Shown one piece after another: positions 62,498 through 64,000 of a stretch of 64,000 bases of DNA. This stretch comes from Calditrichaceae bacterium (lineage in GTDB: Bacteria; Calditrichota; Calditrichia; Calditrichales; JBFXGD01): the NCBI GenBank assembly GCA_050173015.1, contig JBFXLE010000003.1:205992-269991 (forward strand), given 5' to 3'. Both the position numbers and the translations under genes were made by a program. The notes under the pieces were generated by a model that searched no databases, was not told the DNA's origin, and saw only the letters and a list, made by a program, of their open reading frames with translations. The first letter of the stretch is position 1, and each line of letters starts with the position of its first letter.

Positions 62498-62536
62498 AAA
62501 AAGGCTGACACGGAATATGGTGGCAGCCTTTTTTTT
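62498..62536. terminator. Bidirectional terminator after icd
   Basis: AAAAAGGCTGACAC...GTGGCAGCCTTTTTTTT. Confidence 0.8.
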
Positions 62537-62565
62537 ATCAAACATCTCCCATCTTTTTTCTTTTA

Positions 62566-62606
62566 TCTTAACTTCCCACTTCTTACTGCCTACTTCCTAC
62601 TTCCCC
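62566..62606 (-). repeat. Heptamer tandem repeat abutting the stop codon of the helical protein gene
   Basis: Minus strand GTAGGAA GTAGGCA GTAAGAA GTGGGAA GTTAAGA. Confidence 0.7.
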
Positions 62607-63263
62607 TCACGATCTTTCCACAATGCCCAGCTTCTCCAGCAACTGCGGTTTTTCTTCCAGGGCGATGCGGGCGATGGCGATAAAATCGCTCAACCAGAAT
62701 TCCAGGGCGTCAAGAGCCTCGTCCCGTTCCACCGTGGCCTGTTGCGCTTCCCCTTTTTCCTTTTCCTGGGCGGCGTTCAGGCTAACCGTTTCTTCAATCA
62801 ACTGTTTACCAGCGAGCAGTTTTTCTTCGGTGATATTAAATTTGGCCATGGCGGTGATGATATCCGGGGCGGTGGTGGCGTTGATATAAAACTGAGTTGC
62901 CTGCGCCAGCCAGCCGGAGAGACTCCCTTTTCGTCTTCCGTTTAAATCCAGTTTCTGTGCTGCTCCACGGTCACTTTGCAGGGCGATTCGGGCAATTTTT
63001 ACATGTTTCATATAGACCGCGCTTGCCTTGTCCTTTACGGAGTTCACCGCATCGGTGGCTTCATACTGTTCGCCATATTCGCGAATCTGTTTTTGCTGTA
63101 ATTCATGCGCGGTGTCGAACAAAGCCTTGCCTTCGTTGAGACGGGTGTCGTCGTAACCGTATTCGGCCAGATAGGATTTTACCTGCTCATCGGACAAGGC
63201 GTTGGTAATCGCCAGTTCCGCGGCCATCATGCGTATTGCCATTGATTGACTGGACATAGTCAT
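62607..63263 (-). CDS. All-helical hypothetical protein with an internal two-fold duplication
   Basis: AAGGAG lies 7 nt before ATG 63263 (the ORF track starts at 63269); the halves share NA...L..GK.L...Q..E.GE...AT...IARIAL......KL. Confidence 0.85.
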   Translation of the reverse strand: MTMSSQSMAIRMMAAELAITNALSDEQVKSYLAEYGYDDTRLNEGKALFDTAHELQQKQIREYGEQYEATDAVNSVKDKASAVYMKHVKIARIALQSDRGAAQKLDLNGRRKGSLSGWLAQATQFYINATTAPDIITAMAKFNITEEKLLAGKQLIEETVSLNAAQEKEKGEAQQATVERDEALDALEFWLSDFIAIARIALEEKPQLLEKLGIVERS

Positions 63264-63433
63264 GTTCATTCTCCTTATTTATTCATCCTTTTATGAATTA
63301 ACCGGACGATGCCGGGAATAACTCATGCCGCATTTTGATGAATCAATTCAAAGATGTTTATGAATTCACGTTTAAAGATAGACTACATGCCGATACAGAG
63401 AAACAATAATACAATAACATAAGATCAAAAAAC

Positions 63434-63715
63434 GGTAATATGTCATTTCTGACATGGTAAAACTCATGCCCACCTGGTAGCAGTCGCTCTCGGGTGGTAG
63501 AAATCGTTACCAACCCGGTAGAAGTCATTCCCGGACGGTAGAAATGATTGTCAACCCGGTAGAAGTCATTCCCGGGCGGTAGAAATGGTTGTCAACCCGG
63601 TAGAAGTCATTCCCGGATGGTAGAAATGATTGCCAACCAGGTAGAAATCATTCCCGAATGGTAGAAATCACTTCAGGACCGGAATTTGTCATTTTTGACC
63701 GGTGAACTGTTATTT
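63434..63715. repeat. Non-coding tandem array of alternating 20-nt and 21-nt units (41-nt period)
   Basis: Units start at 63434, 63456, 63476, 63496, 63517, 63537, 63558, 63578, 63599, 63619, 63640, 63660, 63681 and 63701. Type A is GGTAGAAGTCATTCCCGGRY; type B is GGTAGAAATGATTGTCAACCC. Confidence 0.92.
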
Positions 63716-63873
63716 AAAATCCATATTTTGTAAAAAACTTTTGTTTAGAAAGTACGAAATAAGACAAAAAACGCTTTTAGCTTGATTGCTTTATTTATTG
63801 TTCGGCGAGCTCGTGAAAATCTTGAGGGAAATTTTTGTGTAGATACAGTTTTTTATTAATTATGGGCTCATTG

Positions 63874-64000
63874 TGTTCTGCCTCAGAACCTTTTGGAATT
63901 TTCGGACAAATTTAATACTATGACTTTTTAGTTAACTTGCCAACTTTAAATTCTCAAAATGACGTTCTTGTTTTGCCTGTTCTACCTTCAATTTTCTTTC
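63874..64000 (-). mobile_element. Probable downstream end of an IS3/IS481-like insertion sequence; continues beyond the window
   Basis: TGT-starting terminus TGTTCTGCCTCAGAACC at 63874; minus-strand ORF tail ERKLKVEQAKQERHFENLKLAS* (64000-63932) resembles the basic helical C-termini of rve transposases. Confidence 0.35.

Follow-up and report, generated by a model that had tools for sequence, protein, structure and literature searches.

A 64,000-nt stretch of the genome of a Calditrichaceae bacterium (contig JBFXLE010000003.1; hereafter the window, and its genome G000) was analysed around a gene of the PQLLE family and a tandem array of 20/21-nt units standing upstream of it. The pairing recurs in several bacterial phyla: a periodic array was found within 800 nt upstream of the PQLLE gene in 66 of 73 loci, compared with 0 of 79 downstream regions and 1 of 63 regions located 1–1.8 kb upstream. 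The array units share a dyad core, are spaced by about two turns of DNA, keep their orientation relative to the gene and, in several genomes, also precede other genes. We tentatively read the arrays as phased double-stranded DNA operators that would be read by the PQLLE protein, which may regulate its own gene together with a small, variable regulon. A literature search at record level returned no description of the PQLLE-array pairing, and nothing relevant on the PQLLE name or the repeats.

A profile search returned 3447 representative PQLLE clusters at E <= 0.001, and nearly all of the best 150 matches listed were 209–240 aa long. A search for longer or fused forms gave one protein only, an open reading frame (ORF) read through an array. 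For comparative analysis, 80 loci were fetched via protein homology from one-genome-per-species contigs; these carry the labels Bacteroidota, Cyanobacteria, Chloroflexota, KSB1, Ignavibacteria, Acidobacteriota and others. Tandem Repeats Finder reported 21-, 42- or 63-nt arrays upstream in most of the 80 loci. In the autocorrelation analysis, which gave the counts above, a region was scored as periodic if its strongest period was 20–22, 41–43 or 61–64 nt with an identity of at least 0.5, and loci with at least 400 nt upstream were used. No conserved neighbour gene accompanied PQLLE in the 80 loci, the largest neighbour cluster being a Uma2-family gene present in 7 of them, in cyanobacteria. The original prediction, made from the letters of the window, had taken gene and array for a candidate undescribed system, and the homologous loci show the two to be a conserved unit, though one whose arrays have counterparts before other genes (see below).

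The cassette is carried by cultured Cytophagales isolates (L013, L039, L059), and PQLLE loci are chromosomal, on chromosomes of 3.9–6.5 Mb. No PQLLE match was found in 72,556 plasmid records, in 50,697 phage records, in a viral contig collection or in 14 well-known control genomes. In the sample of the window's phylum, 6 of 56 genomes carry a PQLLE protein above the cut-off. ORFs of about 225–247 aa with sub-threshold matches (20–44 bits) to parts of the PQLLE profile were seen in G055, G056, G058 and G059, which hints at a wider superfamily of similar length. Many homologues lie on contigs of 1–4 kb; short-read assembly breaks at these loci because of the arrays.

The window gene was annotated from the ATG at 63263, which is favoured over an alternative ATG at 63269 (minus-strand ORF 62607..63269, 220 aa) because homologues are 215–220 aa long and a GGAG Shine-Dalgarno sequence is suitably spaced, seven bases upstream. 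Against the NCBIfam profile NF052641 (PQLLE family protein), its product scored 249.3 bits with a cut-off of 80 and is thus a member, matching over its full length (residues 8–216 on profile positions 3–211 of 211); NCBIfam assigns no function to this family. The window protein had no match above threshold in Pfam, PHROGs or PADLOC. No informative relative was returned by Pfam over 20 PQLLE members or by the ESM Atlas, and a PDB sequence-profile search gave no solved relative.

The two alignable halves pointed out in the original prediction show 27% identity in an ungapped alignment of 85 residues (E = 6e-7), which identifies an internal duplication. The AlphaFold2 model (predicted local distance difference test score 92.3, predicted template-modelling score 0.76, from a 20-sequence alignment) is all-helical and consists of two repeats, each made of helices of 17, 8 and 56 residues and a short one. 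The conserved motifs of PQLLE proteins are located at the middle and the ends of the long helices. With this model and the lack of Pfam and PADLOC matches, the earlier impression that the protein is neither ToxN-like nor Nop-like holds. G000 carries an intact second PQLLE copy on contig C12, which is 84% identical and scores 253.2 bits against NF052641.

In the window array, Tandem Repeats Finder detected a period of 41 nt with 4.9 copies and 86% matches, with 20/21-nt sub-periods, and degenerate or flanking units reach about 63440 and 63715. Nine GGTAGAA words in a single orientation lie at 63496–63666, the only such cluster in the 4.34-Mb genome. An alternation of two unit types, A and B, had been described from the window. 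As a 41-nt super-period it is present there, but as a general feature it fails, with C/G switching of at least 70% between successive units in only 5 of 50 loci, and it is better described as a local higher-order repeat. The layout of array and gene is not an assembly artefact, because one metagenome unitig covers 62781–63903 with 0 differences, spanning the array and the 5' part of the gene; no joints or variants were seen.

The gap between array and start codon measures about 190–200 nt instead of the roughly 170 nt first given, the upstream position of the array being as described. This leader holds the GGAG at 63271–63274 and a short hairpin directly upstream of it, and a paralogous copy of it is found at G000:C11:108-285. 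Echoes of an array unit that had been seen in the gap amount to a 9-mer occurring twice within about 400 nt, for which a rough chance expectation is about 0.3. An Rfam scan of the window returned nothing credible (best E = 1.3), Rfam over the arrays of 15 loci found no family, and a sigma-70 scan of the window stayed at chance level.

Circularly aligned per-locus profiles gave a gene-sense unit consensus of AAT.ATT, followed about ten bases on by a C.CA element. AAT.ATT is an odd-centred palindrome (dyad core AAT-S-ATT), whose score was reached by 0 of 5000 column permutations. The base at the dyad centre on the gene-sense strand was C in 241, G in 226, A in 57 and T in 37 cases. Arrays contain a median of 8 units (range 4–17, profile chain), which are contiguous and without variable spacers, and their periods are 20.3–21 nt throughout, corresponding to about two DNA turns. 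In 65 of 72 loci the array keeps its orientation relative to the gene, as judged by a higher number of 8-mers shared in that orientation, and BLAST matches between loci were all plus/plus. The sense strand is A/C-rich (A>T in 60 and C>G in 53 of 72 loci). RNA of the sense strand was not more structured than shuffled sequences (median z -0.52), the antisense strand being more stable in 57 of the 72 loci. Array similarity tracks protein identity, and the arrays of paralogues within one genome are only as alike as their proteins predict.

By eye, the gene-proximal end of the array often reads C/G and then 5–8 T where the units have an A-run, in several phyla (window 63425–63435, L005, L070, L078, L094). 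An inverted orientation was considered for the window array, as k-mer sharing with arrays of the L007/L008 type favoured the opposite strand and the profile scan gave 116.6 versus 101.3. This reading was dropped because the paralogous C11 locus has the same layout and because the gene-sense unit resembles, by eye, the sense units of the other arrays of G000; the inversion signal is taken as an effect of dyad symmetry, of unquantified size.

Arrays of this type also stand in front of other genes. PQLLE-bearing genomes were searched with their own arrays, and extra arrays of the same type were found in four of them (3 in G042, 2 in G043, 2 in G044 and 3 in G045); a fifth had no further array. 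In G042, an HSP90 gene has one extra array about 130–180 nt upstream and a lipoprotein gene is preceded by another, and two of those in G045 precede a zinc-ribbon protein gene and an alpha/beta hydrolase gene. With G000 included (see below), several extra arrays are upstream of and co-oriented with genes such as those for HSP90, MOSC, DUF2490, alpha/beta hydrolase and lipoproteins, and some are orphans without a close co-oriented gene (L093, L098). A sequence-only model of four units, R1, was built from 66 loci with the window left out. It recovered the window array (match 63499–63715) and five more arrays in G000 (Table 1). The one on C11 belongs to a third, disrupted PQLLE locus, in which the Shine-Dalgarno sequence, leader, array and right flank are kept, whereas of the coding sequence only the first codons remain before other sequence takes its place and the contig ends. 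With strict filters, R1 matched 2 of the 6 genomes that carry PQLLE and 6 of the 50 that do not (one strong match, five single weak ones), a test too insensitive to be interpreted.

The related genome G001, of the same genus, lacks the PQLLE gene downstream of its Iso_dh gene (L090 1908-2210, G001:C18). A check of relatives for an empty site downstream of icd had been suggested; in G001 the array-proximal flank and about two units remain there, with a heptamer block inverted relative to that of the window. Because the gene is missing from this site, the cassette is variable within the genus.

On the explanation that we prefer, each array would act as a series of phased duplex DNA sites, one dyad core each, recurring 8–14 times at about every two helical turns and standing roughly 40–450 nt upstream of the gene and in fixed orientation to it. 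The PQLLE protein, modelled as a pseudo-two-fold helical dumbbell of two 56-residue helices with conserved caps, would be the most likely reader of the array. Its own gene would be under its control, as would a small and variable set of other genes where a genome has further arrays. Duplex DNA and a two-fold binder are suggested by the dyad symmetry of the core, by a centre at which C and G are interchangeable and by a spacing of two turns, and the lack of RNA structure fits too; near-equal use of C and G at the centre would be tolerated by a protein that reads duplex DNA symmetrically. That PQLLE is autoregulated and has a variable regulon is proposed because its own gene almost always has an array, the other array-linked genes vary, and PQLLE is the sole gene linked to arrays across phyla. 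It is from these features that we infer the action of the sites as DNA, PQLLE as their binder and the direction of regulation. Slightly more doubtful is the broader proposal that PQLLE proteins, with their thousands of clusters in several phyla, are the founders of a new class of array-reading regulators, in which the dumbbell would assemble on phased dyad arrays into a filament-like nucleoprotein complex and switch its own gene together with a mobile, lineage-specific set.

Several results weigh against this reading. The family is acidic, with a median isoelectric point of 5.07 and a median charge of -6.4 over 120 proteins. Foldseek with the window model found nothing in the PDB at E <= 0.001, and the best match in a wide search with VIA-align (Z 10.8) was to BAR-type long-helix bundles, a value too low to carry meaning among helical bundles. 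Pfam, NCBIfam, Foldseek and VIA-align recognised no DNA- or RNA-binding fold; a new DNA-binding fold is possible. The periodicity criterion failed in 7 of the 73 surveyed loci. Four further PQLLE loci, from two genomes of one related genus, had no array according to Tandem Repeats Finder and scored at most 4.4 bits with model R1; one of the four shows, by eye, degenerate A-runs at roughly 21-nt spacing. Since the survey was seeded from the protein, it gives no estimate of how many arrays occur in genomes with a PQLLE gene. In G001 (94% complete, 320 contigs) no PQLLE gene was found, yet a 9-unit array stands before the orthologous MOSC gene. If the gene is truly absent there, arrays would not need it, and no other single observation speaks as strongly against such a requirement.

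Transcribed arrays offer another account, which we consider unlikely: the array would be transcribed together with the gene into a long, repetitive leader, A/C-rich and unstructured, or, at orphan arrays, into an RNA of its own, and PQLLE would bind the repeated units, either with a logic like that of CsrA/CsrB or as a type III toxin-antitoxin pair. The conserved orientation, the plus/plus BLAST matches and the sense-strand bias would suit such an RNA, as would the orphan arrays and the frequency of defence models among nearest neighbours, given below. A sigma-70-type -35/-10 promoter directly before the first unit is shared by four Chloroflexota loci (L070, L075, L078, L065), L069 having the -10 part, and a hairpin with compensatory changes follows the array in L070, L078 and L069. 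Because the promoter is directly in front of the array, the arrays of these loci are probably transcribed, which speaks against operator DNA; a promoter in this position would also be compatible with an operator of the roadblock type, and so with DNA binding. General scans were uninformative or negative: a sigma-70 scan of 61 loci showed no enrichment before arrays, the Bacteroidota-type -7 motif occurred once in 10.5 kb, and terminator-like sites were no more frequent between array and gene than in controls (8/65 versus 9–11/65). A dyad core with an interchangeable C/G centre has no obvious meaning in single-stranded RNA, the sense RNA shows no structure signal, the protein is acidic and the 21-nt units are far shorter than the repeats of type III antitoxins, which are roughly 34–48 nt long in RNA that folds as a pseudoknot. 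The promoter spacer of L070, L078, L075 and L065 contains a perfect 10-bp palindrome, situated about 40–60 nt ahead of the first unit, which is itself a candidate operator.

It is somewhat unlikely, in our judgement, that PQLLE is cargo, with the arrays either read by another factor or acting intrinsically, for example through phased A-tract bending or as an unstructured, translation-enhancing leader; the protein might then be a stress protein co-regulated with HSP90, whose gene has an array in G042. The unrelated genes preceded by arrays, the MOSC array of G001, the acidic protein with its generic long-helix fold and the A-runs that many units carry in phase are all as expected of cargo. Against it, lineage-specific units co-diverge with the protein over several phyla, so that any other reader would need to move or co-evolve along with the cassette, yet no second gene is linked; several array types are without A-tracts (e.g. 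L016, L070, L078), and paralogues of one genome have different arrays. That the arrays are selfish or neutral satellites spreading within genomes, linked to PQLLE by shared mobility or insertion preference, seems very improbable to us. Satellites would account for the several arrays per genome, for units homogenised within an array with 42- and 63-nt higher-order repeats, for the variable regions with restriction-modification, toxin-antitoxin, NACHT and insertion sequence (IS) genes in which the loci often lie, and for the two-unit remnant at the icd site of G001. They would not be expected to keep their period, dyad core, orientation and position upstream of the start codon across phyla, nor an array at the orthologous MOSC locus of two species, and no match was found in the plasmid, phage or viral contig collections.

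The pairing was compared with known systems that combine repeats and a protein. Iteron/Rep and parC/ParR have direct repeats of about 20 bp, phased with the helix, upstream of the gene of the binder, which autoregulates by cooperative binding. PQLLE arrays resemble iterons as phased direct repeats within the 17–22 bp range. They differ in being chromosomal, with none in the plasmid records, and PQLLE proteins match no Rep family in Pfam; a winged-helix fold was not among the fold-search matches, although fold searches alone are indecisive. Unlike in type II partition (ParM/ParR/parC), no actin-like ATPase gene is adjacent, and there is no conserved neighbour in the 80 loci. PQLLE is set apart from both systems by its protein, an acidic and all-helical duplication in which neither a winged-helix nor a ribbon-helix-helix fold was recognised, and by arrays of 8–14 units, several of which per genome stand before ordinary genes. 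With type III toxin-antitoxin systems (ToxIN, CptIN, TenpIN) the cassette shares tandem direct repeats directly upstream of a single gene on the same strand and a patchy distribution, often in variable or defence regions. It differs from them in its short units of 20–21 nt, for which no RNA structure is predicted, in the lack of terminator enrichment between array and gene, in a protein that is all-helical in the model and has no match to ToxN/AbiQ-type endoribonucleases in PADLOC or Pfam, and in 21-nt arrays also before other genes.

The likeness to CsrA/RsmA and CsrB-type sponge RNAs is one of logic only: one protein, several dispersed loci with many copies of a short motif, and a two-fold binder that could bridge neighbouring copies. 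There is no relation in sequence or fold, the PQLLE array is linked in cis to the gene of the protein, and its motif is a dyad of the DNA type, in arrays known here from sequence. TIGR-Tas and CRISPR also have a repeat array adjoining a protein gene; in contrast, PQLLE units are contiguous, 21 nt long and without spacers, and neither a Nop match (E <= 10) nor a match to a Cas family was obtained. Dyad-symmetric sites upstream of its own gene, a feature of DNA-binding regulators in general, are present at PQLLE loci. The pairing of PQLLE and array passes the membership tests of none of the repeat-plus-protein systems considered.

The PQLLE family is large and spread over several phyla. If the protein reads the arrays, it would represent a new DNA-binding (or RNA-binding) architecture, and the copying of an array in front of genes would be a new way of wiring regulons. 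For annotators, the arrays provide a recognisable non-coding feature, and they account for breaks in short-read assemblies.

The coordinates of the features in the window and of the further arrays of G000 are listed in Table 1.

Table 1. Features of the window and further arrays detected in the same genome (G000); window positions count from the first letter of the window.
Feature	Position	Strand	Description and basis
PQLLE-family gene	62607..63263	minus	218 aa; ORF, NF052641 score, homologue lengths, model, aligned halves
Leader/gap between array and start codon	63264..63466	minus	sequence, gene-sense listing
Tandem array, nine clear 20/21-nt units	63467..63668		Tandem Repeats Finder, GGTAGAA cluster, profile scan, model R1
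Heptamer run after stop codon	62571..62604	minus	period 7 x 4.9; outside gene-array unit
Hairpin with T-runs on both sides, between convergent Iso_dh gene and PQLLE gene	62504..62535		read from sequence
End of multi-copy IS21-type element	63871..64000		window and contig stop inside element
G000 array, contig C31			21 nt x 8.9; 116 nt upstream of MOSC gene
G000 array, contig C1			21 nt x 8.4; upstream of DUF2490 gene
G000 array, contig C18			21 nt x 10.9; 450 nt upstream of lipoprotein gene
G000 array, contig C25	C25:555-796 (R1 matches)		no co-oriented gene of at least 90 aa between array and contig start
G000 array, contig C11 (L121)	C11:1-700		about 11 units; paralogue of window upstream region

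The heptamers that begin at the stop codon of the window gene are a genuine run, and had been counted as part of the cassette. They are instead a member of a genome-wide repeat and not part of the gene-array unit, because the purine-rich heptamer repeat occurs at 187 sites in G000 (window stretch 62551–62604 and 186 others) and also in G001, after the stop codons of other genes, including a peptidase gene. The genome-wide repeat consists of tandem heptamers followed by A-rich blocks of the AAGA type, often after stop codons and near hairpins, and in metagenome contexts the heptamer stretch is multi-copy, with high depth in many contigs. The window heptamers are also present at the second PQLLE copy. 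By eye, the listing of the other homologous loci showed no comparable heptamer run and mostly terminator-like hairpins in its place.

The gene converging on the window gene encodes an Iso_dh family protein, in line with the icd assignment of the original prediction, and the hairpin between the two is a probable two-way terminator; it was absent from the output of a simple terminator scan. A probable IS end had been placed close by, and the last 130 nt of the window are indeed found again at the ends of other contigs and next to istA/istB genes of the IS21 type, with metagenome depth raised at 63858–64000.

Many of the nearest 116 non-array ORFs at PQLLE loci belong to restriction-modification, toxin-antitoxin, NACHT/STAND, Abi, reverse-transcriptase or IS families, and PADLOC models were matched at E <= 1e-8 by 20 of the 116, a count that has no baseline. 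These are suggestive of variable or defence regions. Housekeeping neighbours occur too (gyrB, tRNA synthetase genes, and the Iso_dh gene in the window). A T-box leader and a group II intron fragment (L065 7552-7865, L022 7554-7629) lie a few kb from two PQLLE loci and are probably unrelated to them.

In G000, six unrelated genes are immediately preceded by a separate repeat of at least 127 nt, 3–9 nt upstream of their ATG, at C12:104618-104744 and at the ends of C9, C33, C28, C39 and C2. It always ends with the same Shine-Dalgarno-bearing sequence, and all copies are at contig ends. The genes behind it are the second PQLLE copy, an IS256-type transposase gene and four others. It looks like a mobile promoter/leader element, or an IS end with a striking choice of target. 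At G000:C2:1-3930 (L089), an IS256-type transposase gene (Mutator family, profile positions 12–241 of 379) is interrupted by an IS21-type element with istA and istB.

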